A program made the translations under genes and the position numbers. 64,000 nucleotides of DNA, from assembly GCF_011045215.1 (NCBI RefSeq), contig NZ_CP049201.1. The stretch is one strand, 5' to 3'. The stretch comes from Escherichia coli (lineage in GTDB: Bacteria > Pseudomonadota > Gammaproteobacteria > Enterobacterales > Enterobacteriaceae). Below, piece by piece: positions 9,300 through 37,412 of the stretch. Numbering within the stretch: position 1 is the stretch's first letter; each line of letters begins with the position of its first letter. The notes beneath the pieces are model-generated. The model saw nothing but the letters and a program-made list of their open reading frames with translations. It ran no database searches and was not told the DNA's origin.

Positions 9300-11126
<1,827 letters not shown>

Positions 11127-12467: not shown

Positions 12468-12728
12468 TCAGGATCCTGACGAGGGCGTTTTTCGAGCCTT
12501 GCGTTCGTCCAATTTGGTGAAGATCCACGATCTAAATGCTGCTGCAGTTCCAACAATAACACTAGCAACTAAAATATTTTCAAGATCTGATTGCTTAATA
12601 TTCACTTCATGGCTAATAACAAACTTAACTACTATCAGAGTCAAGGAGAAGAATATTAAGCAGCAGAAAATCATGTACATAATACTTAGGAGCAGTAAAC
12701 CTACAGTAGCTTTATTTTTTCGTTCCAT
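12468..12728 (-). CDS. Orphan CdiI-type immunity protein (small two-TM membrane protein)
   Basis: 86 aa, two hydrophobic helices, overlaps the end of the orphan toxin ORF by 17 bp; position directly after a VENN-toxin module. Confidence 0.55.
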   Translation of the reverse strand: MERKNKATVGLLLLSIMYMIFCCLIFFSLTLIVVKFVISHEVNIKQSDLENILVASVIVGTAAAFRSWIFTKLDERKARKTPSSGS

Positions 12729-13352: not shown

Positions 13353-13571
13353 CTATTTACGATAGTATCTTCGCATTTGTAGATAGAGTTGTAACCAAAT
13401 CCCAGCACCTCCCCATAAGCCAACTACTGCGCCAATTATTCCGTATTTTACATACACCTCAGAAGGTATTGGTTCCCGAGCTATAAACCAGATACTAACC
13501 ACTATTCCAATAGAGCAAGTAGCTATAGATATAAGTAACAACTTAATAAGAAGTAGTAGATGTTTTTTCAT
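13353..13571 (-). CDS. cdiI: CdiI immunity protein (72 aa, two TM helices)
   Basis: Start overlaps the cdiA stop (ATGA at 13568-13571); hydrophobic two-helix protein. Confidence 0.7.
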   Translation of the reverse strand: MKKHLLLLIKLLLISIATCSIGIVVSIWFIAREPIPSEVYVKYGIIGAVVGLWGGAGIWLQLYLQMRRYYRK

Positions 13572-16500: not shown

Positions 16501-19500
16501 TGACGGTCAACCGGTTACCTGCCTGAAGGGAAACATCACCGTGAACACTCCCCACCGTGCTGCCTTTCTGCGTGGTGTCTGTTGCGGTGTCCGTGACCTT
16601 CAGACTCTGGCTGCCCACGCTGAATCCCACACCTCCGGAGCTCATCAGTCCGGATTTTTTCTCCTGTTTCAGGTGTGTTTCACGGTTGCTTTCTGTCAGC
16701 GTTCCGATACTCAGGTTATTTCCGGCAGCCAGGGAGACACGGTTATCCCCGGCCACACTGCTGCCCGTGACGTTCAGATTATGTCCGGCACCGATACTGA
16801 CCGTATCCCCGTTCAGTTCACTGCCCGTCATGGTCCGGCGGTCAGTGACATCATGCGTGGTAGTGGTGGTTTTCGATAACATCCCGCTGTTGCCGGTCAC
16901 TTTATGGTATTCATCCAGCGAGCGGGTATTCTGTGCACCGGTCAGCGTCACGTCATGACCCGCCATCAGGGCCAGGCCTTTCTGAGCTGACAGCAATGCC
17001 GCCTGTGACGTCATATCCCGTCCGGCGGTCAGCGTGACATCACCGTTACCGGCAAGCGTGCTGCCCGTACTCTGTGTGACGCCCTGCGACAGACGATTAT
17101 TTTTATCCCAGATAATATTGTCCTGCGCGGATGTGGTCACTGTGGAGAATGTCATATCCCTGCCGGCACTGAGTTGCGTCAGACTGTCCTTACCCTGGTT
17201 CACCACCGTTGCTGCCGTCAGGTTTATGTCCCGTCCGGCCTGCAGCACCAGTCTGCCCTGGTCATTCTGCACATATACGCCAGCCACACTGTCGATGCTG
17301 GTACGTTCAAAATGGTTCTGTCCGGCGTCACTCTGTGCCGTACGGGTGGTGGTGGTCAGACTGATATCCCGTCCGGCCATCGCCAGCAGGCTGTCCGTGG
17401 CCTGCAGCAGCCCGCCGGTACTGTTAATATCCGTCCGGGCCGTCAGGCTGACATTTGCTCCCTGAATGGTGCCGGCCTGGTTGTGAATGTTTTCTGCACT
17501 GAGCTGCACGGCCTGCTTCCCGGCCAGTTTACCGCTGTTAAACAGGTCACCATCCAGCTTCATCACCATGTCCCTGCCGGCAATCAGCGCACCGGCACTG
17601 TTCACATCACCGGGTTTTACACGGGCATACACCTGAGGTACCTGAACCGTCTGCGTGCTGCCGTCCGGCAGTGTCACCGTGGTGTTAACCAGCCAGACAA
17701 TATCACCGGTCAGTAACGCCATCTGCTCAGCAGTCAGCGCCACACCTGGTGTCAGGTTGTATTGCTTACCAAATGCAATACCCGCATCCATTAACGCCTT
17801 AAACTGCTCTTCATCATTACTGTATCCGTCCAGGTACCGTTGCCCGGTCAGAGCGACAACCTGCTCACGAATCAGACGCTGTTCGTAAAAACCATCCCCC
17901 AGGCGTTTGAGCATGTTATCCCCGTTCTGAGAAAACGCCTTCTGCATGTAATCACTGCCCAGCCACGTCTTCTGGTTCGTAAAACGCGGGTCCGTTTCAA
18001 CCAGATATGGCACATTCACTGCCGGATTTGTTTTAAACAGGCTGCTGTCCGGCAGACGGGTATCCGGCCCGGCAACATGGATACTGCCCTGAGGTGCGCT
18101 GACTTCAAACTGCTGCCCCGGCAACAGAATGACCGGTTCACCGGCTGACACCACCGGGCGAAGCGGTATCCGGTCAGTAACGGCTACTGTCGCATCCACA
18201 TTTCCGGTCAGTCCTGTCTGTACATCCGTTCCCTGTGGCTTCAGGGGAGAAAGCGTGACCTGGCTGCCCTGAACCTGTCCGTGGCTGGTGAGCTCTCCCG
18301 GCTTCAGCGTGATGGTCTGAATGACGGGGGGCGGCTCGTAAGGGGAAATTCTTTCCCCCTGCCTGTCATTTTTATTTTTTCTTTTTATCCGGTAATAATA
18401 TGTGGATGTCCCTTTATCAGTAACATGGCGCTCTCCGCTGACACTGACGTTTTCCACATCACCGGCCTGCATATCCAGCAGACCACCTGCAACCACCTGG
18501 CTCTTGTCATTAAGCAGTTTGTCTGCCACAACCGTCATGCCGGCACCGGACAGTATTTTCCCCGGGTCGGAGTCTTTTACCCGGGTTTCCTCCACGGTAC
18601 GGGTGTATTCATATTTTGTGAACCGGTCGTTGTTATGTCCGGTATCATCCGGCGTGTTCAGGTTCAGCAGTCCATCAGAGGAGTTGTTATCAATGAACAC
18701 CCCCTCATCTTTTGCATTCCAGCGGACATCTGACCCGCGATGCTGATACTCAGTCACCTTTTCCGTGGAAACCACCACGCGCTCCGTGGTGAAATGGTCA
18801 TTGACGTTATTGATTTGTCCGGCACTCAGTACCAGATATCCGGCGGCTTCAATAGTGGCACTGTGATTATTCAGTACACCGGTTTTACCTGTGGCGGTGC
18901 CATTCGCATCCAGCGTGCCACCGATATGCATATCACCTGCACTGTAAATCAGGCTGTGCGTCCGGTTATTCAGGGTCTGTACCCCCAAGTCCACACGCTC
19001 ACGCCCGGCCAGCGTCGCCGCCACGCCATTTTCTTCCAGATTATTAAATGTGGCAGCACTGACACCAACAGCATCGCCGTAGATTCGCCCGGTACCGGAA
19101 TTCGTCAGGGTGTTCGCCTGAAGATGCGTATATTTCCCGTCAATCAGCCCACGGTTCAGCAGTGTGTCCGTCACGTTAAGCCAGGTCTGCCCGGCACTGA
19201 TTTCACCTTTCCCGGTGTTTTCAAGGCGGATGCTGTTCAGGTCAAGTCGGCTGCCTGCCAGCAGGCTGCCGGTATTAGAGACATCGCCATTAACGGAAAG
19301 CGTAAGGTTTCCGTTCGCAATAGTCTGACCACTGTTACTGAACGCTGTGTTACTTTTCAGCGTTATATCGCCCGGGGAAAGCAGTTTCCCGTCACCACCG
19401 AGCTGACCGGCATCCACAGAGACTGACTGCCCGGCCTTAACCACACCGTCACGGTTCGAAAACGCCAGCTGACGGCCACTGACAGACAATGTCGCGCCGG

Positions 19501-22500
19501 AAGAGAGCACGCCATCATTATTACTGAGCGTCCTGTCTGCCATAACCGTAAGCGCCCTGTCTGCCAGAATACTGCCCTCCTGGTTATCAAGGTCCTGCGT
19601 CGTGATGTGTATTGTCTGCGCTTCCAGCCCCTGGCCGGTATTCTGCGTGTGGCGATTGATAAACTGCAGGGCGTTCAGCGTAATGGCAGAACCACTGCGA
19701 ATCAGACCAGAGACGTTGTCCACAACGCCCCGTACACTGTCGAACAGAATGTCGCCCACAGACTGTATCTGTCCGTGGCTGTTCTGCAGGCCTCCCGTAT
19801 GCAGACGGAGTTCACCTTCACTGACCAGCCGGCCACCCTCACGGTTATCCAGCGAGGTGGTGCTCAGGTCAGCTGTCGTTTTCGCCCCCACGGTCCCGCC
19901 CCGGTTATCCATTGCTCCGGTACTGACAGTCAGTTCCTGCAGGCTGTTCAGCGTACCCCCTCTGTTATCCAGCGTCCGGCCTGCGCTATTAATGCTGATG
20001 CCTTTCCCCTGAATAAGACCGGACTGATTGTTCAGCGCCAGACTGTTCCGGCCGGGCAGACCGGTCGCCACAATCTGACCATTCGCCACCACCTGACCGG
20101 ATGTATTGTTAACCACGCCTGCAGTCAGGGACAGCGCATCTCCCGACAAAAGCACACCGGCAGTGCTGTCCAGTGTGCCGGCATTCAGCGTCATCGGGCC
20201 CTGACTGATAACCCCGCCCCGGTCACCACTGTTACGGTTGCTCAGTGTGTCAGCACGGAGATTCAGTGTGGCACCGCTCTGTATCAGACCACCTGCATCA
20301 TTGCTGATATCCGTCGAGGAAAGGGTCAGTGACTGCTGTGCCACCAGTCTGCCGCCCTGATTATCAGAGCGGGTGACATCCAGCCTGCTGTTACCGTTGC
20401 TGACCACCGTCCCCTGCTGATTTTCCAGCACATTCAGGTGCGCATTCAGGTCCCCGCCGGCGGCAAGCGTCCCTTCCTGATTACTGACATCGCCACCACT
20501 CAGCAACATATCCGTCCCGGCCTTCAGTGCGCCTTTCTGGTTCATCAGCGTACCTGACGATATCTGTAATGACGCCTGACTCCCCAGCACGCCCTGACGG
20601 TTATCGAGCGTTCCGGCGTTCAGGGTCATATCCTTCTGACCCGCCATAAATCCCTGCTGGTTATTCAGCATACCGGCCCGTACTGTCAGGGTACCGGCGC
20701 TGCTGATACCACCCCGTGTTTTCGTGTTCCGGTTACTGAGAACCCCGTCCTGTACATCCAGCGTCATGTCACTGCCGGACTGAATCAGACCATCATCAGA
20801 GACCAGTTCGCTGCCTGACACAGACAGCGTTTTCTGTGAAAGCAGTCTGCCGGACGTATTATCCAGCGCACCATCCAGCGTCACGGACAGCCCGTCAGAC
20901 ACCACCGTACCCTGGTGGTTATTCAGACTCCCTGCCGAAATATCCAGCCTGCCGGCGGACTCCATTCGTCCCTCAGTATTGCTGACAGCCTGCTGTGTTT
21001 TTATCCTGCCCGTTCCGGCAGCAGCTGAAATCAGTCCGTTGTCGTTATTCAGTGCCTGTGTATTAATCAGGATGTCACGGCTGGCAATCAGACTTCCCTG
21101 CTGGTTATCCACGGCGCCGGTTGTCCTCACCTGCAGACTACCTGACTGCGCCGCCTGCACTTTCCCCCTGCGATTATCAAGGCTCAGTGCATCCAGGCGC
21201 ACCGCGCCATTTGCCGCAAGCAGCCCTTCCCGGTTATCCACGCTTCCCGGCAGACTCAGCGAAAAATCCCCTGTTCCCGTCTGAATCAGACTGCCTTTAC
21301 GATTTGACAGGCTCTGTGCCGATATCTGCAGTGTGTCGGCATTTACCGTGCCACCATTATTGCTGAACTGCCCGGCAGTCCGGGCGGAAAGCGTACCGGC
21401 ACTCAGTTGTGCATTCTGTGTGGACAGATTTCCGCTGCCTGCATCCAGCTCAGTATGTTGTCCCTGTATCCGGCTGTTGCTTAAATCCAGCCCCTGCCCC
21501 TTCAGTTGCATGTCCCCACCGGACAGAACCTGTCCGTGTGCCGCCAGTTCGCCGGTGGTACTGACAGTCAGGTTGCCCGCTGCCGCCAGACGTCCGTCAT
21601 CTTTCACCCCGGCGGCCAGCAGACTCCGCTCACCGCCGGTCAGACGCGCTGTCTGAATCCGGGTGTTGCGGCGTGATGCCACAGAGCCTGTATGGGTGAA
21701 TGCACCATCACTCTGTATCTGCGTATCCTGCCCCGCATAAACAGAACCACTGTTATGCAGCTCCCGGGTTGTCGCCAGATGCACATCCGTTTTCGCACTG
21801 ATACTGCCACTGTTTTCAATACGTCCGTCAGCCGTCAGGGTAACCGCCCCTGCCTGCGCACCAATATGACCGGCGTTACGAACCCCCACCCCCGTTTCCG
21901 TACCGACAAGGCGAATTTTTCCGGCATACATTCCACCAAGGCTGGACACATCCAGCGCCACCTGTGGCTGCGAAGAGGCATCAGCGGCTTTTTTCTCAGT
22001 CTGCCCGTGTGCAATATCCACATTGTTACGTCCGGTGGTCACTTTCAGGTCCTGCGCCCAGATACCCGCATTAATCTTCACAGACCGGGCAATGATATCG
22101 GTATAATCCGTGCGCGAGGCATCCATCCCTTTGCCCGTAATCTGAATCTCACCACGTTCAACACTGAATCCGGTCAGACTGCCGTTTTTCATCTGAGGCT
22201 GCCCCGTGGTCAGCGTGGCCCGGTTCGCATTAATAAAACCGCACCCGTCGCAACTGATGCCGGCCGGGTTCGCAATCACCACCTGCGCCTTTTTCCCGGC
22301 AACCTCAACAAAACCGTTCAACTGGCTGGGATTGCGACTGTTCACTTCATTAAGAATGATTCGGGCCTCTCCCTTCGCCAGCCACGGGTTACCGGCAACC
22401 ATGCCGCCCAGTTGGGTCTGCACATTTTTATGCGAGTTATTCAGAATGACACCCTGATGACTGACATCAAACTGACTGTAAGTATTGTGCGATACCCCAC

Positions 22501-22804
22501 CTGCAGAAGGTGTCTGGATATTGACCTGAGGAATGCCGCTGGCTGTCTGCGTAATCGTGGGCTGCTGATGCCCCGGTGCGCCATGGTCTGCGACAATGCC
22601 TGCAGCACTGACAGAATGCACCATCCCCGAGGCCAGCCACAGGGAGAATGCAAGCGATGTGACACGGCAGATACGTTGCCTGCGTGGATATCCTGTACGG
22701 GAGGAGGGTGATGCACCGGCGCGACCGGAACGGGCAATATCTGCCACCACCATCAGCATTCCCCGGGCTTTGTTAAAAATAATGCGGTAACAATTTTTGT
22801 TCAT
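13568..22804 (-). CDS. cdiA: CdiA contact-dependent inhibition toxin / TpsA exoprotein (3078 aa)
   Basis: Extended signal peptide MNKNCYRIIFNKARGMLMVVADIARS, TPS domain, long filamentous-haemagglutinin repeat region, VENN motif at 14465-14476 followed by a 298-aa Gly-rich C-terminal toxin domain. Confidence 0.95.
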   Translation of the reverse strand: MNKNCYRIIFNKARGMLMVVADIARSGRAGASPSSRTGYPRRQRICRVTSLAFSLWLASGMVHSVSAAGIVADHGAPGHQQPTITQTASGIPQVNIQTPSAGGVSHNTYSQFDVSHQGVILNNSHKNVQTQLGGMVAGNPWLAKGEARIILNEVNSRNPSQLNGFVEVAGKKAQVVIANPAGISCDGCGFINANRATLTTGQPQMKNGSLTGFSVERGEIQITGKGMDASRTDYTDIIARSVKINAGIWAQDLKVTTGRNNVDIAHGQTEKKAADASSQPQVALDVSSLGGMYAGKIRLVGTETGVGVRNAGHIGAQAGAVTLTADGRIENSGSISAKTDVHLATTRELHNSGSVYAGQDTQIQSDGAFTHTGSVASRRNTRIQTARLTGGERSLLAAGVKDDGRLAAAGNLTVSTTGELAAHGQVLSGGDMQLKGQGLDLSNSRIQGQHTELDAGSGNLSTQNAQLSAGTLSARTAGQFSNNGGTVNADTLQISAQSLSNRKGSLIQTGTGDFSLSLPGSVDNREGLLAANGAVRLDALSLDNRRGKVQAAQSGSLQVRTTGAVDNQQGSLIASRDILINTQALNNDNGLISAAAGTGRIKTQQAVSNTEGRMESAGRLDISAGSLNNHQGTVVSDGLSVTLDGALDNTSGRLLSQKTLSVSGSELVSDDGLIQSGSDMTLDVQDGVLSNRNTKTRGGISSAGTLTVRAGMLNNQQGFMAGQKDMTLNAGTLDNRQGVLGSQASLQISSGTLMNQKGALKAGTDMLLSGGDVSNQEGTLAAGGDLNAHLNVLENQQGTVVSNGNSRLDVTRSDNQGGRLVAQQSLTLSSTDISNDAGGLIQSGATLNLRADTLSNRNSGDRGGVISQGPMTLNAGTLDSTAGVLLSGDALSLTAGVVNNTSGQVVANGQIVATGLPGRNSLALNNQSGLIQGKGISINSAGRTLDNRGGTLNSLQELTVSTGAMDNRGGTVGAKTTADLSTTSLDNREGGRLVSEGELRLHTGGLQNSHGQIQSVGDILFDSVRGVVDNVSGLIRSGSAITLNALQFINRHTQNTGQGLEAQTIHITTQDLDNQEGSILADRALTVMADRTLSNNDGVLSSGATLSVSGRQLAFSNRDGVVKAGQSVSVDAGQLGGDGKLLSPGDITLKSNTAFSNSGQTIANGNLTLSVNGDVSNTGSLLAGSRLDLNSIRLENTGKGEISAGQTWLNVTDTLLNRGLIDGKYTHLQANTLTNSGTGRIYGDAVGVSAATFNNLEENGVAATLAGRERVDLGVQTLNNRTHSLIYSAGDMHIGGTLDANGTATGKTGVLNNHSATIEAAGYLVLSAGQINNVNDHFTTERVVVSTEKVTEYQHRGSDVRWNAKDEGVFIDNNSSDGLLNLNTPDDTGHNNDRFTKYEYTRTVEETRVKDSDPGKILSGAGMTVVADKLLNDKSQVVAGGLLDMQAGDVENVSVSGERHVTDKGTSTYYYRIKRKNKNDRQGERISPYEPPPVIQTITLKPGELTSHGQVQGSQVTLSPLKPQGTDVQTGLTGNVDATVAVTDRIPLRPVVSAGEPVILLPGQQFEVSAPQGSIHVAGPDTRLPDSSLFKTNPAVNVPYLVETDPRFTNQKTWLGSDYMQKAFSQNGDNMLKRLGDGFYEQRLIREQVVALTGQRYLDGYSNDEEQFKALMDAGIAFGKQYNLTPGVALTAEQMALLTGDIVWLVNTTVTLPDGSTQTVQVPQVYARVKPGDVNSAGALIAGRDMVMKLDGDLFNSGKLAGKQAVQLSAENIHNQAGTIQGANVSLTARTDINSTGGLLQATDSLLAMAGRDISLTTTTRTAQSDAGQNHFERTSIDSVAGVYVQNDQGRLVLQAGRDINLTAATVVNQGKDSLTQLSAGRDMTFSTVTTSAQDNIIWDKNNRLSQGVTQSTGSTLAGNGDVTLTAGRDMTSQAALLSAQKGLALMAGHDVTLTGAQNTRSLDEYHKVTGNSGMLSKTTTTTHDVTDRRTMTGSELNGDTVSIGAGHNLNVTGSSVAGDNRVSLAAGNNLSIGTLTESNRETHLKQEKKSGLMSSGGVGFSVGSQSLKVTDTATDTTQKGSTVGSVHGDVSLQAGNRLTVNGSDLIAGRDMALSGKEVSITAATDRHVQTHTVEQKTSGLTLALSGTAGSALNTTVETVQAAKSAGNSRLEALQGVKAALSGAQAVQAGRLAEAQGNQKENNNTVGISLSYGSQSSKSEQQSEQTVAKGSTLTAGNNLSIQATGSGVKGVDGDLTIQGGQIKAGNNVLLQANRDVNLVSAENTSKLEGKNTSSGGSVGVGIGVGPGGPGFSLSASANQGKGSEKGNGTTHTETTVDAGKQLTIISGRDTTLTGAQASGETVKVDAGRHLTLTSEQDSDHYDSKQQNASAGGSFTFGSMSGSASVSLSRDKMHSNHDSVQEQTGIFAGRGGFDVTTGQHTQLNGAVIASTATADKNRLDTGTLGFSDTENRADFKTEHQSAGLSTGGSVAGNFLGNMANNLLVGANHEGHADSTTQSAVSAGNITIRDTQSQKQDVADLNRDVAHANQTLSPIFDREKEQQRLQQAQLIGEIGNQVADIARTEGQIAGEKAKRDPAALNQARAELEAAGKPFTEQDVAQRAYNNGMAASGFGTGGKYQQAIQAATAAVQGLAGGNLSAALAGGAAPYLAEVVKTMTTDPVTGEVNKAANVAAHAVVNAALSLAQGNNALAGAAGAATGEVVGMIATQMYDKPVSELSETEKQTVSTLATVAAGLAGGLVGDSGASAVAGAQSGKTTVENNYLSYDEAHAFDREMTACRKAGGDCGDIQNKYAVLSAENRQKLHIDVAADPLTALSGEDKWNIEGGLSAAGRPSWLYGSLTNQEVKDYVAEGNSYDLNYLNSNTSKGDRALAFFGEPENYWGTVAGAGSLLTSSATLTEKFVSAGLSYGANGAVQIGTGNIGDKFDYLSFMMSGLTGVGTAGKGYYANQLLGAGSAYMSSQIEGQDSTASVVGSMAGTGLGYNIGASITNKLEAQYIKNQLGMDASKYSLQYSEKSIGYGMYQGGQMSSIPGTFGGFVGSFVSEGASSATQKEVDGDKK

Positions 22805-22819
22805 TCTGATAAACCTGAC

Positions 22820-23347
22820 TTATCTCTCCGGCACATCCACAGCAAGCGGGTGCTGCACACGCCACTGGCGCGCCTCTTCACGACTGACCTGTGCACCCCG
22901 GAAATTCATCACCCGCAACCCGGTCTGCTGCCCACGGTGGTACAGCGAACGCCAGCACAGACGGGGAAAAATATCCTGCCGGACAAGACGACTCATATCC
23001 GGGGTATGTCCAAAAGGGGCAATCCAGTCACAGACCCACATCCGGTCGCCGCTGTTCCAGTCCGACTGAGGCATGAGAATTGCCGGCTGCGTAAGATAAC
23101 GCGCCTCTGCCTCCGGGCTGAGCCAGGCCTGGCTCATGAAGAAAACCGGTCGCCCCTGCTCTGTTGCCACCACATACTGTCGGTGCTTAATCACCGGCAG
23201 CAGCAGGTCCGGCAGGGTATGCAGTGGCGCATCACGATGCAGGGGGGAGTGCATCCACAACCAGACGGCCGCCCCCAGAACTTCCGCCTCATTGACCGGC
23301 TCACCGGAATACAGGGGACTCAGAACGTCATATTTCCCGTTACGCAT
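22820..23347 (-). CDS. cdiC: CdiC, HlyC-family toxin-activating lysine acyltransferase
   Basis: 175 aa; VWLWMHSPLHR and SGDRMWVCDWIAPFGH match HlyC/CyaC acyltransferase motifs; sits between cdiB and cdiA. Confidence 0.85.
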   Translation of the reverse strand: MRNGKYDVLSPLYSGEPVNEAEVLGAAVWLWMHSPLHRDAPLHTLPDLLLPVIKHRQYVVATEQGRPVFFMSQAWLSPEAEARYLTQPAILMPQSDWNSGDRMWVCDWIAPFGHTPDMSRLVRQDIFPRLCWRSLYHRGQQTGLRVMNFRGAQVSREEARQWRVQHPLAVDVPER

Positions 23348-23356
23348 GAAATTTTC

Positions 23357-25096
23357 TCAGAAATCCCGGAACAGATTAAAACCGGCTGTCACATCACTCG
23401 TCATAAAACCCGCCGGTTTTGAAAACGGACGACCGATGAAAACGTCATAATCCGTACTGAACAGTTGCCCCCTCAGCCCCACAACACCACCGGCCAGATG
23501 ACGTCCCACCAGGTATTCACTGCCGGCTCCCCCCACCTCGCCGTAATCCATTCCCAGATATAACGCCTGCTCCGGCAGTGGCGTACGCCAGGCCAGGTCG
23601 TTGCGGATATACCAGCCGTTACTGGCATTCAGCGTTCGCTCCCCGTCAAAACCACGAACCGTCCAGCGGTTACCGATGGCAAACTGTTCCTGTGGGGTCA
23701 GCGGGGTATTGCTCAGCTGGCGCTGATACCGGAAGGAATAACTGAAGGGCTGCCCTGCAAGGGTAAAGGGCAGATTAAAGGATGCATTCAACTGCAGGAT
23801 CTTACTGAGCGCCGTTGCCTCACCGAACGTTTCTTCCGGCGCCGGCTGTGCACCAAACCAGCGGGTTCCCCGTTGCCAGCTGACACCAGCATCCAGTGTG
23901 GCCTGAGAAATATAATGACGGTGCTGCAGCCCAAGTCGCCAGGCCGCTGTCTGCCGGCGCTGCACCTGGATTTCCGTATCATTAATGTAGTTACGCGACC
24001 TGCGGGCCTGAACATCGTAGGTCAGCACCGTTTTCTGCGTCCCGTTACGGTGCAGTACCCGGCTCAGCTGCATACCCAGATTCTGACTCTCGCCACTGTA
24101 CTGGTAATCCTCAACCGCACCAGCTACCGTCTGATGGTAATCGTAATCACTGGCGGTGACGGAAAACTGCCAGTAGCCGAAAGGCACAGAGTAATGGGCC
24201 GTGTAGTTTTTACTGCCCTTACCCCCGTAATGTGGAAAATTACGGGTGGCAGAAACATACAGCAGGTCACTCAGGGAAAAAGGATTATCCAGAGAAAATG
24301 TTATACCACCGAGATAACGCCCTGTGCTGCGGGTACCTGAATCATCAAGCGAAAACCCCAGTCGCCAGTATTTGTCCTGTTTGCGGGTAATAAGAATGTC
24401 ACTTTCCCCTGGCTGCTCACCGGGTACAATTTCCATATCAGCCTGCACACCCGGCAGTCGTTGCATATTCTCCAGCCCCTGCTCAATGTCCCGTAAATCC
24501 AGCAGAGAACCTTCGTGTGCCGGGAATGAGGAATACAACTGAATATAGTCATCACTGTCCGGTGTCAGACGCACATGTCGCACAACACCGGGAATAACAA
24601 CCAGCCGGAGGATACCGCTTTTTAAATCCTGCGAAGGTGCCAGAACACGGGTGGTGACATAACCATGATCGACCAGACGGTTCTGCAATGTACTCATCAG
24701 CAGATTAATTCCTTTCGCCCCCAGGCAATGCCCGACCGCCCCGTTGGCGATTTTTTGTAAAGGCAGCCAGTGTGGTAACGCATCAGCCCCCTCCAGTTCC
24801 GTCTGTTTAATCTGAAAACAGGGCGTTTCAACAGGAAAATTAATCTTACGGGCAAAAGAGCCAGGTGCAGAAAGGCGAACATCAGGGGCTGAAGGCGTCA
24901 GTTGTTGCTCAAGGGCTTCCTGACGCTGCTGCTGAATGATAAATGCATTATCTCCGCTACGCCGGACATCCGCGGCCTGAAGAGATAAAGGCGATAATAA
25001 AACAGACATCAGTGTCAGTGACAGCAAGGACGGACAGCGCCGGAATACGCTTTGTTCCTCAGCCCTCTCGTTCCTGCAACATAATTTTCCAGTCAA
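23357..25096 (-). CDS. cdiB: CdiB, TpsB/ShlB-family outer-membrane transporter
   Basis: 579 aa, signal peptide, POTRA plus beta-barrel, C-terminal aromatic residue; 9 bp upstream of cdiC. Confidence 0.9.
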
Positions 25097-25687
25097 ACGA
25101 AAAACCTTTTATTCATGTCATACCAACAATCACCAGCCTCCTGACGATACCTCCCACCATGTTTTGCGATGGTACGCTACCGCCCTTCCGGTATTTACCC
25201 GCATCAACCGGTACCAGAATGTTGAGTAATAAATTTGTCAACTCTGAATTGGTTTAATTTTGATCATTATAGAATGAAGATCTGAAAATTCTCAATATTG
25301 CAGACATATCGATCGATATGTAGTTATCACGTAGTTATTTATTCCAACTAATATCGCAAAAGCAGCATATTGCAAAACTTATAACCACGGAGAACAAAAA
25401 ACGACAGAAAATTATTCCGTAAGATGCTTCAAATACAGCCAGTCAACACTGAAAAAAGTGATTTTTGATTAAAATCATTGAAGTTTATGCAGTACAGAAT
25501 CTGAGCGGTTCTCAGCGAAAGTCAGAAGAAAGGGAGGTGAGGTAAAAGGCAGAAATCAGAGTGACAGGAATGCACAAAAAGCAAAAAAAAATCAACAAAA
25601 CAATAAATTAACATACCCCGAAAAAGCATCCGCAACGTACCGGGTAATAACAACAATATCGTGTAAAACAACATTGTTCCGGAAGTT

Positions 25688-25879
25688 ATGTCTGAAGATA
25701 TCCCGTTACCCAAAGTCGGTCAGCGATACAGAGACGATCATGGTGCGCTTGTCACCGTAACCAGTGTTGAGGAAACCCGGGTGGTATTTATGCGGGACGG
25801 CTATCCACATCCCTGTATGCGGCCAATGTACAACTTTCCAGGAAAATTCAAACCCGAACCCCGGGAAGAAACAGAATAA
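25688..25879 (+). CDS. hypothetical small protein (63 aa)
   Basis: ORF only; vaguely DUF1653-like pattern. Confidence 0.3.
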   Translation: MSEDIPLPKVGQRYRDDHGALVTVTSVEETRVVFMRDGYPHPCMRPMYNFPGKFKPEPREETE

Positions 25880-25931
25880 AACGAAATTCCTGCCGGCAAT
25901 CACACTGCCTGATGGCAGCATAATCCACTTT

Positions 25932-26165
25932 TTAATTCTCATCCCCGAAGACAAGCCCAGAAAACCACTCCGGGTGTTCACTGTATGCCGTGTTCAGCGC
26001 ATCCCAGGAAACGTTTATATAAAAGCTGTCCTGCAATCTGCGGGTAACAACTTCTGCCAGGCGATTCCGGTTATCCGCCAGTCCGGCATAACCTCTCTCT
26101 GCCAGCCACTCATTCAGTTCATGTTCCAGAGACAGATTGATAATATCGTAATCGGACCTTGCCAT
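25932..26165 (-). CDS. hypothetical small protein (77 aa)
   Basis: ORF only. Confidence 0.3.
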   Translation of the reverse strand: MARSDYDIINLSLEHELNEWLAERGYAGLADNRNRLAEVVTRRLQDSFYINVSWDALNTAYSEHPEWFSGLVFGDEN

Positions 26166-26251
26166 TCCCGTTTCCTTAGCACATGTTTTCAGGCACGGGT
26201 AAAAGTATAAAGAATGTCATACTGCTGCCAGAGCCCCCCCTGATGGTCGTA

Positions 26252-26911
26252 TCAGAGATGGTATGCCGGCACTTTGCGGGTTGTTCCCGTCAGGTTATCG
26301 TGCACCTCCACATTCGTTGTCACTACCGGCATTCCGCTCTGTCTTAATCTCAGGACATCAGCCGCAATACGCTGACTGCCAGACCAGAACAGCCCGTCCA
26401 GTGCGGTCACCAGTAAACCTGCTTCCAGCGCATACTTCAGCCGTTCACGGGACGCTTTCACTTCCCGGGCAACCTGCTGATATGGCAATGATGTGTTTTC
26501 ATTCCCAACCACGCGACGAATACGGTGAGACAGATGATACCGGAATGTATCTGGCACACCCGAAAGGCTGGCCTTCAGGCTGTACACGCAGCCAAAGCGT
26601 TTATCGTTAAACACCACATTTTTCTGGCTGATGCCCCATTCTTCACGCAGCGCGGCAATCAATTGCGGTGTCCGGGTAAGCAGCAAGCGAAAAGGCAGTT
26701 CAAAACTGGTGACGTAATCCACATTCAGCAGTGCAATACGCAGCCGTTCTTCTGGCCCGGCCTCTGTCTGCCGACACTCCTCCAGAACATCCTGCCACTG
26801 CCGGCGAAGACGGAGGGATTCGTTCCGTTCTGTAAAACAGTATTTATCCGCCAGATAGTCAACTCGTGTACGCATACTGAAAAGAATTCCGTATAAAAAT
26901 TCATCTGACAA
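26252..26911 (-). CDS. hypothetical protein (219 aa)
   Basis: ORF only, no recognised motif. Confidence 0.4.
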   Translation of the reverse strand: MSDEFLYGILFSMRTRVDYLADKYCFTERNESLRLRRQWQDVLEECRQTEAGPEERLRIALLNVDYVTSFELPFRLLLTRTPQLIAALREEWGISQKNVVFNDKRFGCVYSLKASLSGVPDTFRYHLSHRIRRVVGNENTSLPYQQVAREVKASRERLKYALEAGLLVTALDGLFWSGSQRIAADVLRLRQSGMPVVTTNVEVHDNLTGTTRKVPAYHL

Positions 26912-27932
26912 AACTTTATCAGTCCATAAAAATCAACGGAAGCACAGATGATTCACTCGTCCATTACCAACGGATTTTGCCAATAACCCTGGCGTTGACA
27001 ACGGGTAACATAAAAGACAAAGACTGAACAACTGTTTTTAACGGCGATACTGCATGATTTCATCGCCATCCGTCACCGTCATATCCACCAGATGAAACAA
27101 CTCTGTGCAGGTTTTATCCGCAATTTCCGGATTATCAAAACACGTCGGTCAGTTCATGTTGTACGGGGACGGGCTGCGCTCCCCATGACAGAACATTATC
27201 GATATCACCAGCATACGTGCCACTCAAAGTGTTACGGCATCGTACGGCGTGGTCATGTTCTTCTCTTTTTCCTGTTCACAATAACCTGCTTAACGGTCAG
27301 AAGGCATTTTCACCAGGATTATATTCACCTGTACAACCATGTTCAGCCATGACCGCTGATAAGTGAACATCCGGAGTATATTATTCTGCCGCTGTTGAAT
27401 TGCCAGTAAGCTCCCGGTCCTTTGCTCCGGCACACTGTTTTTGTTCCTGGCTCTCTGTCTGAGGTGAAACCTTCCAGGTATGTCGCCCCATTTTTGTTCG
27501 TCTCCATTTTTTTAAGAAGTGCTCAAGTGAAAAACTTTTTACCTCTCCGGGAGTTGTCGTATTTGCTGATATTGTTCGTTTGTTTAAAGAACCTGCTGGT
27601 CTTGCCATTAATATTACCTGCTGATTGCTTCACGCCCGGGCTCCTCGCACTGTGCGCGGGTTATTGTTTCGTTTTCAGTCCCGGGGGCGCCAGGACTCTG
27701 TTTGCAGACCATAACGGCCTGACCTGTACTGTTTCTTCGGCTCTTTGATGCCCGTTTACGCCATTTGTTCCCTGCCCCTCTGTCTGATAACGAATACGCT
27801 CACTACGCACAGCACTGAACAATACCGGCAACAGCATGTCTTACATGACATTCGCTGTGCCATCCACCGGAAAACATTTTCAGATACCGGATGAGGTACC
27901 ACTTCCATTAACAGCACGAGGTAACAATACTG

Positions 27933-28409
27933 ATGGTAACGCTGGCCATTAACCGTAAACCGCAGGGTATTTTCAGTAAGTCACCGGCAACGCCGCTGCA
28001 GGATAAAACGAACACAGTACACAACGAGAAGCCTCTTCGGGTGAGGAATCAAACACCATGGCGACATATGACAAAACGCCAGCGCAAAAACCGTAAGCGT
28101 ATAAATCGTCTTGTGGAACTCTGGCCTGAGTTATTCAACCGGGAAAAACCAAAACCGCTTAAAGTGGGGATACCTGACGACCTGATACAGGATATCGCCA
28201 TCAGAAAACTGGCGTTTGGCGCAGGTACATTACGCGCGGCAGTGGCGTCTTATGTGCAGTCTCCGCGCTATTACCGTACGTTAATGGCAGGTGGCGCCCG
28301 TTACGACCTGAAGGGGCAACCGTGCGGAGAGGTGACACCACATGAACAGAAAGAGGCAGAGAGCCGTTTAATGATGCTGAATGACCGACGAAAAGCCAGA
28401 AAGCGCTGA
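27933..28409 (+). CDS. ProQ/FinO-family RNA-binding protein
   Basis: LVELWPELFN...KPLKVGIPDDL...YVQSPRYYRTL...ARYDLKGQPCGEVTPHEQKEAESRL aligns closely with the ProQ N-terminal FinO domain; true start may be an internal Met. Confidence 0.8.
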   Translation: MVTLAINRKPQGIFSKSPATPLQDKTNTVHNEKPLRVRNQTPWRHMTKRQRKNRKRINRLVELWPELFNREKPKPLKVGIPDDLIQDIAIRKLAFGAGTLRAAVASYVQSPRYYRTLMAGGARYDLKGQPCGEVTPHEQKEAESRLMMLNDRRKARKR

Positions 28410-28410
28410 T

Positions 28411-28959
28411 TCACTGAGCTGTAATCAATGTACAGCGCTGTACCGGACGATGGATAATGGCGGTCACAACCGGTAACCCCAGAGACAATGCGACTGTTTT
28501 TAACGCAACATACTGGCCGGATGTATCACCCCGGGCAACCCGAAAACACTTTTCCACCCGGCATTGTCCGCCAGCGCTTATCACCTGCCAGGTCTGTTGT
28601 AGTAAATCCACCAGTTGTGAACATTCTTCATCAACTGTCACACTGGCTCGCGGATGGCAAATGCTCGTCTGGCTGAGCAGCAACAGGCATCGCATTGTTG
28701 CTCCTCCATGTTGTTCCCGCAACCAGCGTAATACCAGCGGCGATGATGGACTGGCCGTGTGATTACGCTCAGTAATACGTTCGTGCACCTGTCGATAAAA
28801 GGAAGTACAGAATGTCTGAACCTGTTGTCCGTTGATGTTTCCTTCAGCCGAATGGAGCGTGAAGTGGACTGCCAGCAGACGCGGCCAGTGGTCCACCGCC
28901 TGCTGAACAAAACGCCGGATGTCTCCCGGCTCTGAAAGTAATACTTCGGTTATTTGCAC
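28411..28959 (-). CDS. hypothetical protein (182 aa)
   Basis: ORF convergent with the ProQ-like gene. Confidence 0.4.
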   Translation of the reverse strand: MQITEVLLSEPGDIRRFVQQAVDHWPRLLAVHFTLHSAEGNINGQQVQTFCTSFYRQVHERITERNHTASPSSPLVLRWLREQHGGATMRCLLLLSQTSICHPRASVTVDEECSQLVDLLQQTWQVISAGGQCRVEKCFRVARGDTSGQYVALKTVALSLGLPVVTAIIHRPVQRCTLITAQ

Positions 28960-29225
28960 GAAATGTTCCTTTTCGAATCCTGTTGAATTTTACTGATCCG
29001 GTACAGACACGCAGGAAAACACGCCTGCACCGGTGTAATGCCAGTTACAAACAATAAGAACGGAAGGACGAATCAGTCAGGAAATGATGACAAACCGTTC
29101 ACTGACCGGAGGATACCACCAGGAAGGTTAACGGGAGAGTAACCGGTACCAGGGACAGGGCCGGGTTCCACAATACCAGCGCCGGCATTTCGCACATTGC
29201 CAGCGTACCGGCATCCCAACACGTT

Positions 29226-29459
29226 TCATGCTGCTGACCCTCGTGATTCTTCGATTCGCTGCTGCATCCACTGCTCCACTTCGCTTTTGTACCAGCGGCT
29301 GCTGCGACCCAGTTTGATGGGTTTAGGAAAATGGCCTTCACTGATCAGCCTGTAAAACCATTTATCGGTCATGCCGGTGAAACTGGTGATGTAGTTCATG
29401 TCGATCAGGGGATCGTCGGCACGCAGCAACACGCTGTCGTGGCTTATTGTGGTCAACAT
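29226..29459 (-). CDS. alpA: AlpA-family phage/island transcriptional regulator
   Basis: ITSFTGMTDKWFYRLISEGHFPKPIKLGRSSRWYKSEVEQWM matches the AlpA HTH core. Confidence 0.7.
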   Translation of the reverse strand: MLTTISHDSVLLRADDPLIDMNYITSFTGMTDKWFYRLISEGHFPKPIKLGRSSRWYKSEVEQWMQQRIEESRGSAA

Positions 29460-29527
29460 GGTCAGAATATCCTCTGTAAGATTTATGAAGGTTGTGCGAA
29501 TGCGGGGAAAGATGCTGAGCCGTGTTT

Positions 29528-30133
29528 TCAGAACGGCCCTGCAGATCCGGGATACCCGGGATTACCGGCGAGGCAACGGGCTTCCGGATCGCACACATCA
29601 CGACGAGCGCGGGCGAAATCACTGAACGCCCAGATAAGGTCTTTAAACAGGGCTTCGCAGTCCGGTGACCGGCGATCCAGTACCACATCCCGGGTGATCT
29701 GCTTCTGGTACGGCTTTGCTTCACCTGGTGACGCGAAGCCCAGCACGTTACTCCAGGCATCCAGAATCAACCGATCCAGCTCAGGGCCATCGAAATACTC
29801 CTGTCTGACGCACAGCACCACGTGGTATTCCGGTTTTTCAGGATGACGGGTCAGGAGCCAGCAGAGGTCACGTCCGGGTGTTGCATTCATCAGCGCACTG
29901 ACGGTTTCGATAAAATCCATACCAAACCAGGTCTTTCTGCTGCTGAAGGTATTGTCATATTCACACGGCAGACGAAGCAGGATCCGCCGTATCCGGGAGC
30001 CGGACTGCTCACGCAGCGCACGCTCAAGGACACCGATAACTTTGCTCTGATAAGATGGCCAGAAAGGTGCCAGGCTATAGTCGAAATAAGGGATAGTATT
30101 CATAAGATATGCTCCGTTATGCGCAGCCCACAA
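29528..30133 (-). CDS. Inovirus Gp2-like / YfjJ-YagK family protein (putative HUH Rep-like)
   Basis: 201 aa; RILLRLPCEYDN and EYHVVLCV (HxH-like) motifs. Confidence 0.45.
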   Translation of the reverse strand: MWAAHNGAYLMNTIPYFDYSLAPFWPSYQSKVIGVLERALREQSGSRIRRILLRLPCEYDNTFSSRKTWFGMDFIETVSALMNATPGRDLCWLLTRHPEKPEYHVVLCVRQEYFDGPELDRLILDAWSNVLGFASPGEAKPYQKQITRDVVLDRRSPDCEALFKDLIWAFSDFARARRDVCDPEARCLAGNPGYPGSAGPF

Positions 30134-30360
30134 TGCGTCCTGCCCATGAATGAGCTGACGTGTTATAGCTTGCGGATGGGGTTGATGGAATAAGTGAAGA
30201 ACCGAAGCAGAACGGAAAGATCAGGTCACCGACAAGGGACAGAACACTGGATATGGTTCAGGGCGAATAATCTCCGTTGACTTCAGTTCACATCATTAAG
30301 CAAGGTGGTAAGGTTTTACCGACGGAATGTTTCCAGGACAGGAAGCTCAGGATTTAAGTT

Positions 30361-30927
30361 TCAGAAGTGAGGCTTACGAGGACGCCCTGCAGCAGGTCGT
30401 TCAGGAACTTCATTGCAGCCGTAGGCGCACAGCCCGTCTTTTTGTTCTTCTTTCGCCAGATAATGCAGGACACCGCGAATATTATCGATGCTCCCGGGAT
30501 CGTTATGACGCACGGGGATGTTGATGTTGTATGTATAATGCGGCTGATATGTACAACGGTGCACCGAACCGCTGTTATGCGTAATAGACCGCCAGCATTC
30601 CGTAATCCGCTCCGCAAAGGGATATACTTTTTTAACCCTCTGACGATCGATCCAGAAAACCGCATGCGCATGAAAACCATGATCAACCGTCCATTCAATC
30701 ACCCAGAAGAAGCCAACCATATTTTCAAATTGTTCCGCCTGCTCCAGCAGCATACGTAACTGTAATTCAAGCCAACGATGATCAGGTTGTAAGAAATCAG
30801 GCGTATCTTTCCTGTAGAAGAAATCCATGCGTAAGGCCCGCAGGCAGGAATAGCGTGCTATCATTTGATTGATGTGATTGTCAAATAAAGCGGTAAAAAA
30901 CCAGTTTGGTGTGTAAGATTTAGGCAT
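30361..30927 (-). CDS. Inovirus Gp2-like / YfjJ-YagK family protein, second paralogue
   Basis: 188 aa; LRMDFFYRKD and HGFHAHAVFW (HUH-like) motifs. Confidence 0.45.
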   Translation of the reverse strand: MPKSYTPNWFFTALFDNHINQMIARYSCLRALRMDFFYRKDTPDFLQPDHRWLELQLRMLLEQAEQFENMVGFFWVIEWTVDHGFHAHAVFWIDRQRVKKVYPFAERITECWRSITHNSGSVHRCTYQPHYTYNINIPVRHNDPGSIDNIRGVLHYLAKEEQKDGLCAYGCNEVPERPAAGRPRKPHF

Positions 30928-32516
30928 GCTGATGACTCCTGAAAGTTAATGACGTTTTAAGTGCTGTAAGCGAATTAATGCTTTCGCTCATAATCAGATC
31001 TAAAACGGTAATAACTTACAGACGGTATTTATCAGGCATGCTGTAACAGAATGGATACGTCGGTTATTAACGACACGCAACGTTGTGCTGAAGGGAATGG
31101 GTCATCTGATGGCATTGACTAAAGAAATGAGATAAACGAGGAGTAAAAAAATACAGATTCAATAAAACACAATGAAACACTGCAAAATACGCAATAAACC
31201 CCCACTACCAGGAGATTAAGAAACATATTACGACCAATAACATCATAAACTACAAACTTGCTCTCAGTGAGTCTGAAAAAACGTGTACAAGGCCAACACA
31301 TATCTGTAACCTGATAAAATCATACACTCTCATTTAATCTGTTAAAAACAACTCATGTTCAAGATATGAACGTTAACGGGTACACGGTACCAGAATGAAA
31401 CATACCATTGATGGATAATTTTCATTTTGTTTAACATAAAAGATAATCAGAAACGAACAGACATAATCAGGAATTCACCCTGTTAATTTCATTGTTTATC
31501 CTGCGCTGTTAAACATGACGGAATCATAGACACCTTATCAAAGAGTAAACATTCAGTTAATCAGTGATGACAGAAGAATTGATGTTCACCAGAATAGTTA
31601 AAACACTTCAGATAAACAATTATTGTTAAACAATGATAACGCATGACGGACAAGATTAAAATCAATTACTGTCTCACTGAACATGAGAACAGATGAATAT
31701 CTGTCAGTAGAATGGTAGAGAATACACCTGAATATCATATGAGTTACAATCGTCATGATTGAGATATGGATGGAGAGGATATTGTTATAATAGTGACAGT
31801 GAAGACTGGAGAAGGACATGAGTGAGTATAACTGGATGAAAATAATAGTAATGGAATGTGTAAAGATAGAGAGGAGAGATGAATGACAAAGATGGATAGA
31901 AAATAAAGAGACAGATATTAATTATAGTAATAAACCTAAATTAAAATTATCCATATCTGATGAGTAAAAATAAGAAATCCTACGTCCTGAATACAAGCCT
32001 AAGAAAAACATTCTCTTACAGAAAAAGATCAAATCGTTTTTCTTCAATCTCCCATTGAAACCTGAACAGCATCTCTTGCCAGTAACAGACTGATAACCAT
32101 TCATTATTCATAATAGAGACCAACATCGTCATATACGCCGGCACTCATCACGACAAGAATCAAAAAAAGTTATATATAAAAACTCACATAATATGGTTAT
32201 ATGATTAGCTTCAGACATGTTAAAAATAGCATTTCTGTTCACTTTCTTTTTATAAAAAACGAAAGCCATTCTTCCACCAGTGCGCACACTCCTGTATTCA
32301 ACCAACTCTGACAGCAGGTCATTATGAAAACAAAATCAAATCACATATATAGTGCATGTGCTGCTACTGTTGCTACCGTAGCGATTTTTTCAGAGAAATT
32401 TTCGTTCATGCCCCATAGATGGTGAACATTTGCACAGATGCGGGATATGCAAAACGCCTTACCACCAACCTTCGAATGAAGGTTGATTTTTTTCGTTTTA
32501 TCTGTGTTAGTTTATT

Positions 32517-36671: not shown

Positions 36672-37412
36672 TCACCTGCCATCCAGCAAACGCCCCGGCC
36701 CACGACTGCAACCATAATTACGTTGCCCGGAACCGTCATGCTGCTTCGTCTCATATTTCACGAGATAACTGGCTCTGTTCCGAGCTTTCTGCATCGCTTC
36801 CACATCACCACGCTTGATCCAGAGAACAGCGGCTTCACCAGACTTTTTGTCTGAAGCCTTCCTGGTTTCAGAACATTCACCAGGCACAGGCGTATCATCG
36901 GAAGAAGGGCGAGCATCAGATGATGTCGGTTTACGGAAAGGCGTTGACAGCGTCCGCCTGGAAAAATGAACCAGTCCATTACCCTGCCAAGGCTCAAGAT
37001 GCAGAGCACTGCACCATGCCAGTTGGATCAGCGTCGCCAGCGAAGAAGGAACGGTGAAATCCCCTGGCGAGCACCAGGTATCTTTGTTGAGCAGTAATAT
37101 CACGTGATAATGTTTCCTGCCTTTTTCCTTGCCAAACTCCCGACACCAGAAATAACGCAGAGTGGTTGCGCGCACACGCTTGTTGGCACGTCGTTTTTTC
37201 CGCTGGTAAGCCTGAATTTTTGCTTTCAGGGATTCGAAAAAACGAGAAATCACCGCTGAATCTAAATCGGTATCCATGATGGTGGCAGGCATATACTCAG
37301 GAAAACGTAAATCCACCCGAATTAACGAGACGGCACGGTGTTGCGCCAGGGCACTGTTGAGAATGCTTTCAAAACGGGATAACCAGTAAGCATTGTGTAT
37401 TGGTTGATTCAT
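36672..37412 (-). CDS. Inovirus Gp2-like / YfjJ-YagK family protein, third paralogue
   Basis: 246 aa; SLIRVDLRFPEY and HYHVILLLNKD (HUH-like). Confidence 0.45.
   Translation of the reverse strand: MNQPIHNAYWLSRFESILNSALAQHRAVSLIRVDLRFPEYMPATIMDTDLDSAVISRFFESLKAKIQAYQRKKRRANKRVRATTLRYFWCREFGKEKGRKHYHVILLLNKDTWCSPGDFTVPSSLATLIQLAWCSALHLEPWQGNGLVHFSRRTLSTPFRKPTSSDARPSSDDTPVPGECSETRKASDKKSGEAAVLWIKRGDVEAMQKARNRASYLVKYETKQHDGSGQRNYGCSRGPGRLLDGR

Follow-up and report, generated by a model that had tools for sequence, protein, structure and literature searches.

The stretch of DNA analysed here (the window) covers 64,000 nt of the Escherichia coli contig NZ_CP049201.1 (assembly GCF_011045215.1). 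At 27933–28409 it carries an open reading frame (ORF) for a small protein from the ProQ/FinO RNA-chaperone family. The features of this gene are:

27933–28409, plus strand: FinO/ProQ-family ORF, complete, with ATG start and TGA stop, 158 aa (ORF list)
27918–27921, plus strand: Shine-Dalgarno-like GAGG, 11 nt 5′ of the ATG, by sequence inspection
27933–27971, plus strand: N-terminal motif M-V-T-L-A-I-N-R-K-P-Q-G-I, from alignments
28053–28109, plus strand: Trp/basic stretch T-P-W-R-H-M-T-K-R-Q-R-K-N-R-K-R-I-N-R, aa 41–59, with W43 at 28059–28061
28089–28403, plus strand: FinO domain, aa 53–157, from the Pfam envelope, the AlphaFold2 model and the fold search
28269–28271, plus strand: Y113, predicted 3′-nucleotide pocket, equivalent to RocC Y87 and ProQ Y70
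28299–28301, plus strand: R123, predicted 3′-nucleotide pocket, equivalent to RocC R97 and ProQ R80

The ATG at 27933 is taken as the start because the N-terminal peptide is conserved from residue 1 in homologues of 57–66% identity, and an AGGTAA..ATG block is kept in the aligned loci of the window's own clade (type B, described below). The predicted protein has a mass of 18.4 kDa, a pI of about 11 and, by composition, 35 Lys and Arg residues against 14 Asp and Glu, which falls within the range of the ProQ/FinO family, whose members are basic proteins of 14–27 kDa that bind RNAs with a hairpin and 3′ tail as monomers (PMC9977716). The Pfam ProQ/FinO profile (PF04352) matches aa 53–157 over 104 positions (4–107 of 109) with E = 3.7e-23 and a score of 82 bits, the gathering cutoff being 27; this is far beyond chance. 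A phmmer search of all PDB sequences returned FinO-domain proteins only (E 7e-11 to 4e-7), led by the ProQ N-terminal domain (5nb9, 7e-11) and FinO (1dvo, 1e-10), followed by NMB1681, Lpp1663 and RocC.

Within the family, the protein lies outside the named groups. The NCBIfam FinO model (NF010317) scores 60 bits, under its cutoff of 136, so that the protein is not FinO in the strict sense; the ProQ model (NF003434) scores 50 bits, under the equivalog cutoff of 127, and is matched only at positions 4–114 of 205. FinO gives the best pairwise score of the characterised members compared (BLASTP 61 bits, 34% identity over 90 aa), and identity to the ProQ N-terminal domain is about 31%. FopA of SL1344 pCol1B9 aligns at 37.7 bits (34% over 80 aa) across the domain only, with the N-termini unaligned, which places the protein outside the FopA branch. 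The locus holds a genuine, uninterrupted gene whose small, basic product belongs to the FinO/ProQ family without being FinO, ProQ or FopA; a FinO-domain RNA-binding protein is very probably what it encodes.

An earlier note on this DNA had placed an accessory ProQ paralogue here, to be checked by the Pfam profile and abandoned if no FinO domain was found. The ORF lies exactly where that note had it, on the plus strand and 158 aa long, and the Pfam score is about three times the gathering score. Membership of the ProQ/FinO family therefore stands, whereas ProQ in the narrow sense does not, as the protein falls below the NCBIfam cutoff and lacks the linker and Tudor domain. The note's phrase that the ORF aligns closely with the FinO domain of ProQ was right about the domain and overstated the closeness, with an identity of about 31% and a position somewhat nearer to FinO.

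The fold was modelled with AlphaFold2 on a 43-sequence alignment. Predicted local distance difference test (pLDDT) scores are 85–94 over aa 41–158, and aa 1–40 are predicted to be disordered (pLDDT <50). The modelled elements are helices at 48–63, 80–91, 97–108, 111–119 and 136–157, with strands at 122–124 and 130–133, and this predicted order of helices and beta-hairpin is that of the FinO domain (five helices and a two-stranded beta-hairpin). All 26 Foldseek matches in the PDB at E ≤ 0.001 are FinO-domain structures, and the next match has E = 1.9. FinO itself (1DVO) leads the list with E = 2.6e-7 and a root-mean-square deviation of 2.0 Å over 102 columns, and RocC gives a target-normalised template-modelling (TM) score of 0.85.

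Residue correspondences were taken from the phmmer and subfamily alignments and from the description of the RocC–RocR co-crystal (PMC9674577), and conservation was counted over 41 subfamily members. The pocket residues Y113 and R123 are invariant, as is L100, while the N-cap arginine R101 (RocC R75, ProQ R58) is found in 40 of the 41 and the beta-turn glycine G79 (RocC G52, ProQ G37) in 38; all five are common to FinO and ProQ. The ligand-contact residues that are kept are those by which an intrinsic-terminator-like hairpin is held, at its 3′ end and lower stem, in RocC, FinO and ProQ. In ProQ (5NB9) the set Y70, R80, R58 and G37 corresponds to Y113, R123, R101 and G79, and in the Legionella protein RocC (7RGU), which binds the terminator of RocR, the pocket Tyr and Arg, the turn Gly and the N-cap Arg are likewise conserved.

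The N-terminal 45 or so residues are predicted to be disordered and are conserved at both ends of that stretch. At the very N-terminus, the family consensus M-T-x-L-T-I-N-R-K-P-K-G-I-Y aligns with P-V-L-T-L-K-R-K-T-E-G of FinO; the best conserved columns are L4 (40/41), I6 (41/41), R8 (39/41), K9 (39/41) and G12 (38/41), where FinO has L, L, R, K and G. The motif recurs in the 57–66% identical homologues and in the distant representatives P0123, P0134, P0141, P0204 and P0192. At the other end, W43 (35/41) lies in a basic stretch in which K52, N53 and R56 are present in all 41 members. By eye, and not from an automatic alignment, aa 41–59 is a candidate counterpart of the FinO chaperone segment T-P-P-K-W36-K-V-K-K-Q-K. 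In FinO, Trp36 and the flexible N-terminus are needed for strand exchange and duplexing, and the core domain only anchors the RNA (PMC3105414). Judged from its sequence, the protein has the build of FinO: an N-terminal extension, predicted to be disordered, carries the L-T-I-x-R-K-x-x-G motif and the Trp/basic stretch.

FinO of F-like plasmids, which acts on FinP and the traJ 5′ untranslated region, is thus the best structural match, and both proteins are element-encoded, small and basic. Common to the two are the disordered N-terminal extension, the L-T-[LI]-x-R-K-x-x-G motif and a Trp placed in a stretch rich in Lys and Arg, although the protein of the window lacks the long N-terminal helix of FinO, which accounts for about 15 extra FinO residues in the alignment. 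The resemblance to ProQ is confined to the FinO domain: the protein stops directly after it, without the ProQ-type linker and C-terminal Tudor-like domain, and it is an accessory protein with an N-terminal extension, whereas ProQ is core. RocC differs in having a long C-terminal extension and in being encoded by the core genome. FopA (YafB of the IncI plasmid pCol1B9) and PcnR (IncI2) are also element-encoded FinO-domain proteins with a basic N-terminal extension, as here; both control a replication gene via a cis-antisense RNA (PMC7491321, PMC9977716). They belong to different replicon types, however, and the N-terminus of FopA is unrelated.

DNA relatives of the gene are present in 1098 of 5426 complete E. 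coli genomes (about 20%), at 1514 places and with up to 8 per genome. All 1514 places are chromosomal and none is on a plasmid; the family also differs from FinO in not lying beside tra genes. Among the matches listed, every one is annotated as 'ProQ/FINO family protein' and none as a pseudogene, and the 97–99% identical gene of other E. coli is WP_000258198.1. Protein searches gave 260 clusters in Escherichia, Shigella, Salmonella and Citrobacter, and of the 1697 superfamily representatives clustered at 50% identity only 7 scored below 1e-30, so that this is a tight enterobacterial subfamily. A plasmid origin was considered and set aside, the nearest plasmid proteins being FinO at about 34% over the domain only. 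A phage collection gave only six distant matches, the best of them from Sodalis phiSG1 (39%). On hundreds of contigs a 114-aa version occurs, which is a natural 'minimal' FinO-domain variant. A review of the family recognises an 'eclectic' branch, made up of FinO-like proteins both chromosomal and mobile, and does not mention this group (PMC9977716), and no paper was found that characterises an island or satellite FinO-like protein in E. coli. The gene itself is already annotated in hundreds of genomes and follows the known pattern of mobile-element FinO-like proteins.

The relatives occur in two genomic contexts. In the first (type A), homologues of 57–67% identity, found in E. coli, Salmonella salamae and Citrobacter, are part of an operon whose genes all run in one direction; this set includes 74 IMG/VR contigs, mostly of 10–16 kb. 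The order is AlpA, AntA/Bro-N, small ORFs, DUF4222, a primase/helicase, optionally a single-stranded DNA-binding protein (SSB), the FinO-like gene and PerC. Among the 67 type A loci with at least 3 kb of upstream sequence, a co-directional primase/helicase lies upstream in all 67, DUF4222 in 66 and an SSB gene directly upstream in 27, and PerC is found no more than 700 nt downstream at 55 of 74 loci. One complete element has an integrase at one end, followed in order by AlpA, the primase, SSB, the FinO-like gene, PerC and a Nu1-like small terminase subunit. The published make-up of phage-inducible chromosomal islands (PICIs) of E. coli and other Gram-negative bacteria is the same gene set (PMC11773190, PMC10111431), and ProQ/FinO-like genes have also been described in phage satellites, the satellite-plasmids of Vibrio (Nat Commun 2026). 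PICI-type phage satellites, and within them the replication operon, appear to be the home of the subfamily.

The second context (type B) is that of the window's own clade, with 77–97% identity among the window and loci L001 and L010–L013. Here the order is DUF4222 (plus strand), three minus-strand genes including one of the ECs1377 family, the FinO-like gene (plus), and then, on the minus strand, a gene of the UCP030791 family, AlpA and YagK/YfjJ. The neighbouring features in the window are:

about 25679–25888, plus strand: DUF4222-like ORF
27381–27608, minus strand: ORF of 75 aa, starting MARPAGSLNKRT (AT-hook-like), matching phrog_21027 with E = 5e-10, in an ORF-poor gap upstream of the FinO-like gene
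28411–28959, minus strand: convergent UCP030791/YagK-YfjJ-like neighbour, 182 aa (ORF list)
3307–3570, minus strand: PerC-like ORF
48163–48186, plus strand: attR, a copy of the 3′-terminal 24 nt of tRNA-Sec (selC), from blastn against the empty site of E. coli PapM-32-1

The last of these defines the right end of an island. The setC-yicL-nlpA-yicS region in the right part of the window is 99.9% identical to PapM-32-1, in which the selC-setC site is empty: tRNA-Sec lies about 630 bp from setC with only a rhuM fragment between them. Homology of the window to this empty site (blastn) starts at 48163, which corresponds to position 8364 of the PapM-32-1 locus (L018), inside its tRNA-Sec gene (8293–8387). 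As the homology begins in the last 24 nt of selC and the PapM-32-1 site is empty, window 1–48186 is accessory DNA at selC; the island to which it belongs measures at least 48 kb, and its left (selC/integrase) end lies outside the window. The earlier note's placing of the gene in an island is borne out by this attR and empty site. The content is typical of the mosaic CP4-57-like islands of E. coli, with AlpA, several YagK/YfjJ (G2P-like) paralogues, YfjI/DUF3987, a YfjP-like GTPase, helicases and a Tn5-like transposase, together with DUF932, antirestriction, RadC and YeeU/CbtA genes recognised by homology to annotated relatives.

The window copy thus stands apart from the satellites in which its 57–67% identical relatives sit, elements of 10–16 kb with int, alpA, primase and PerC, as well as Bro/AntA, DUF4222, SSB and Nu1-like genes. 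It lies in a CP4-57-like mosaic island of at least 48 kb, is a lone plus-strand ORF among minus-strand genes, and has no adjacent primase, SSB, PerC or leader RNA (see below); tblastn found no remnants of SSB, primase or helicase beside it. It is therefore no member of a PICI early/replication operon and is orphaned from the canonical satellite module. The DUF4222-like and PerC-like ORFs scattered in the island are 31–36% identical to the satellite versions, which suggests past recombination with PICI-type satellites. The 1 kb upstream of the gene is full of indels among related loci. A partner role for the 75-aa ORF at 27381–27608, a putative gene with a counterpart of 93 aa in L013, was rejected: a deletion removes it in L010, indels run through the entire gap, and it is not conserved as a neighbour.

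On the other side, the gene converges on the 182-aa neighbour, which is labelled PF27752 UCP030791 in L010 and 'YagK/YfjJ domain' in RefSeq. In the stretch 28407–28443 the two stop codons are one base apart (TGA-t-TCA), and no intrinsic terminator was found on either strand at the convergent ends, so that the 3′ ends of the two mRNAs must overlap if both genes are transcribed. This arrangement, kept in L001, L010 and L011, would allow the protein to modulate the sense–antisense pair formed by the 3′ ends of its own mRNA and that of its neighbour. Such local control is, however, very improbable: the neighbour is missing downstream of the gene in L012 and L013, which belong to the same clade, and in every locus of the satellite type; in L001 it carries a frameshift; and the structure of the region is unexceptional (z = −0.7). 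The neighbour is context and not a conserved partner. Inside its last codons there is a perfect 14-nt palindrome, GTACAGCGCTGTAC, at 28430–28443.

Selection on the FinO domain was estimated from the ratio of nonsynonymous to synonymous substitution rates (dN/dS), which is 0.09–0.40 over all 28 pairs. The domain is under purifying selection. Within the orphaned clade the ratio is 0.16 (window against L012) and 0.22 (window against L010), with dS reaching up to 0.55, and selection has therefore gone on after the satellite context was lost.

The satellite loci carry a further conserved element. The leader of the type A early/replication operon is 90–97% conserved, whereas the genes of these loci are far more diverged, and it contains two hairpins with obvious compensatory changes; the leader motif of the PICI-type elements is TCTAACCACCAACGATA. 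When 40 distinct copies were aligned on the strand opposite to the operon, RNAalifold gave three helices in which 99% of cells pair and 6 pairs have double-sided changes, against 33–53% pairing in slid controls, and none of 500 shuffles reached any of five measures. Canonical pairing is 99.0% on the minus strand and 80.4% on the operon strand, the lower figure arising because many of the pairs that form on the opposite strand are G-U. In the 12 nt that follow the terminal hairpin on its 3′ side, the mean number of U is 5.8 for the opposite strand and 1.3 for the operon strand. Given the covariation, the strand asymmetry and the U-rich 3′ tail, the most fitting interpretation of the leader element is an antisense RNA some 85 nt long:

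L014:1118–1205, minus strand: candidate cis-antisense RNA of about 85 nt, covering the Shine-Dalgarno sequence and start codon of the first operon gene

It is found at equivalent positions in 67 of 78 satellite-type loci (for example at about 2370–2450 in L003 and 2797–2880 in L009) and in at least 120 IMG/VR viral contigs, in the latter always upstream of a primase; this gene is present in all 85 of the leader-bearing elements that could be evaluated. Its parts are an anti-Shine-Dalgarno CCUC, a small stem-loop, and a terminator stem-loop that is GC-rich and has a U-rich tail, a geometry that resembles FinP/traJ and belongs to the type of ligand that FinO domains recognise. An extended −10 sequence (TGG-TATGAT) in codons 3–6 may be its minus-strand promoter, which is a guess from sequence. 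The RNA has no Rfam family apart from a weak SymR-like match (E = 0.01). Another candidate in these loci was rejected: minus-strand 'terminators' in SSB and at the 5′ end of the FinO-like gene are weak, stem from runs of Lys and Gly codons that produce an excess of T-runs on the non-coding strand, and are not conserved in the window. C4/isrK-type immunity RNAs have been reported for some PICIs (PMC10111431), and an Rfam search of five related loci at E ≤ 0.1 gave two weak matches only and no such RNAs.

Taken together, these data are consistent with a FinO-type protein that promotes the pairing of an antisense RNA with its target, ancestrally in the control of a satellite and here in trans, and this reading is given about an even chance of being correct. 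The protein would bind RNAs with a hairpin and 3′ tail by way of the Y113/R123/G79 pocket and the R101 N-cap helix, and its N-terminal extension would promote pairing of a structured antisense RNA with the target mRNA, in the manner of FinO with FinP/traJ and of FopA with Inc/repZ. Ancestrally, its task would have been post-transcriptional control of early or replication gene expression in the satellite. FopA and PcnR provide the closest functional analogy for a FinO-like gene in a satellite replication operon, and FinO/FinP, FopA/Inc and PcnR are precedents for element-encoded FinO-like proteins that control an antisense RNA (PMC9977716, PMC7491321). As the window copy is separated from both the operon and the antisense leader, it could, if active, work only in trans, its targets being RNAs from co-resident elements or from the host. 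Regulation of island or host transcripts, which the earlier note had proposed, is likewise an inference.

Several observations weigh against this reading. Some concern the protein. The N-cap serine of RocC (S70) is replaced by G96, and K71 and K73 by A97 and T99, with loss of the basic side chains, so that the N-cap motif is G96-A97-G98-T99 in place of RocC S70-K71-S72-K73; G96 and G98 are each present in 40 of the 41 members. Glycine is itself able to cap a helix. The position where His or Tyr is usual (ProQ H98; N115 in RocC) is occupied by E141, and by Glu or Asp in 29 of the 41. These subfamily deviations could, to judge from the alignments, alter specificity for the tail or the stem of the RNA. 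In the window's clade the first 40 codons are nearly neutral (dN/dS 0.7–1.0), and many E. coli carry the 114-aa versions (H83–H90; P0038, P0067), which start at the equivalent of M46; their DNA matches the window gene only from about nt 116–121 onwards, and the 5′ end with its N-terminal motif has therefore been replaced.

Others concern the flanks and the RNA partner. In a promoter and terminator scan of 26000–31000, counts were at the level of shuffled sequence, with no convincing promoter within 500 nt upstream of the gene and no intrinsic terminator downstream of it. The flanks fold no better than shuffles (z = −0.5 for 27620–27940 and −0.7 for 28395–28620). Rfam gave no match in the whole window at gathering thresholds or in 25000–31500 at E ≤ 1, and hence no FinP-like RNA or FinP/traJ-like pair in the window. 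As a cis partner, the satellite antisense RNA was rejected, since neither blastn nor a covariance model (best E = 4) finds it in the window or in any type B locus. Among the 85 evaluable leader-bearing elements, only 20 (24%) encode the FinO-like protein, so that the co-occurrence test does not support a specific link between protein and RNA; the leader belongs to the satellite family generally, and the protein is an accessory in a subset of it, with no exclusive link.

Part of this evidence would suit another account, in which the gene is an evolutionary relic, recombined into the mosaic selC island from a satellite-type element, with its operon, promoter and RNA partner lost and no current function. 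The absence of promoter and terminator signals, the indel-ridden upstream 1 kb, the relaxed N-terminal region and the frequency of 5′-replaced variants all point this way, as do the complete loss of primase, SSB and PerC synteny, the lone plus-strand position and the scattered DUF4222-like and PerC-like ORFs, which look like module debris. Nevertheless, the ORF is intact, the matches listed among the 1098 genomes are annotated as protein and not as pseudogene, the RNA-contact residues are all retained, and the domain has stayed under the constraint given above even in the orphaned clade. A relic is accordingly considered somewhat unlikely.

A different target range has also to be weighed. The protein might be a host-directed global binder of many host small RNAs and mRNA 3′ ends, as a competitor of chromosomal ProQ or a supplement to it. 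A FinO domain alone can act globally, as in NMB1681, the minimal ProQ of Neisseria, and in ProQ (PMC9977716); the generic terminator-recognition residues are kept, and no dedicated cis partner was found. On the other hand, the FinO-like proteins of mobile elements that have been studied, as well as RocC, have narrow targets (FinO, FopA, PcnR, RocC; PMC9977716, PMC7491321), and the window protein is without the C-terminal Tudor domain that has been called critical for the chaperone activity of ProQ (PMC9977716). Presence in about 20% of E. coli genomes, with up to 8 copies, is the pattern of an element function and not of a host function. Global binding is therefore unlikely.

A more specific version of trans action by the FinO-type protein can be envisaged, in which it is a 'fertility-inhibition-like' factor. 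It would bind the terminator stem-loop of the antisense leader of co-resident or incoming PICI-type satellites or related elements, so that repression of their early/replication operon is stabilised or sped up and the island polices competing satellites. The classical parallel is that FinO from one plasmid represses the transfer of another. This is a speculative extension and is held to be distinctly unlikely.

Considered alone, the gene is an ordinary member of a well-known family of RNA chaperones and changes little for the window. About one fifth of E. coli genomes carry this uncharacterised FinO-like subfamily, and none of the searchable papers found reports that satellite induction or copy number in E. 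coli is under RNA-based control. Should the protein and the satellite antisense RNA act together, they would bring FinO/FinP-style riboregulation into satellite biology, with a tractable protein–RNA pair. What merits experimental follow-up is the link to the satellites and the antisense RNA of their leader.

The rest of the window holds further gene groups. A complete-looking contact-dependent inhibition (CDI)/two-partner secretion locus, in the order cdiB, acyltransferase and cdiA, occupies 13568–25096 on the minus strand, and the island holds at least three YagK/YfjJ-type paralogues, the first of which is the convergent neighbour described above:

23357–25096, minus strand: ShlB/FhaC-type transporter of the CDI locus
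22820–23347, minus strand: HlyC-type acyltransferase of the CDI locus
13568–22804, minus strand: CdiA-like exoprotein, 3078 aa, with two-partner secretion (TPS) domain, filamentous haemagglutinin (FHA) repeats and PT-VENN pre-toxin domain
12712–13314: ORF of 200 aa just downstream of cdiA, without a Pfam match
28411–28959, 30361–30927 and 36672–37412, minus strand: YagK/YfjJ-type (inovirus G2P/Rep-like) paralogues of 182, 188 and 246 aa

The ORF at 12712–13314 could be an immunity gene or an orphan module. Two large minus-strand helicase genes, at 4349–7030 and 9300–11126, resemble anti-phage defence genes; they comprise a superfamily 1 helicase (AAA_11/AAA_12) with a C-terminal DUF2726 and a NERD nuclease domain fused to a UvrD-like helicase. 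Between them, at 7657–8874, lies a lone type VI secretion system gene of the ImpA/VasL type. To the right of yicS and outside the island, a type III secretion cluster extends over 52666–63271 and includes, by homology to PapM-32-1, a SycD-like chaperone, SipB/YopB-like and IpaD/SipD-like proteins, the EilA regulator and an EaeX/Air adhesin.

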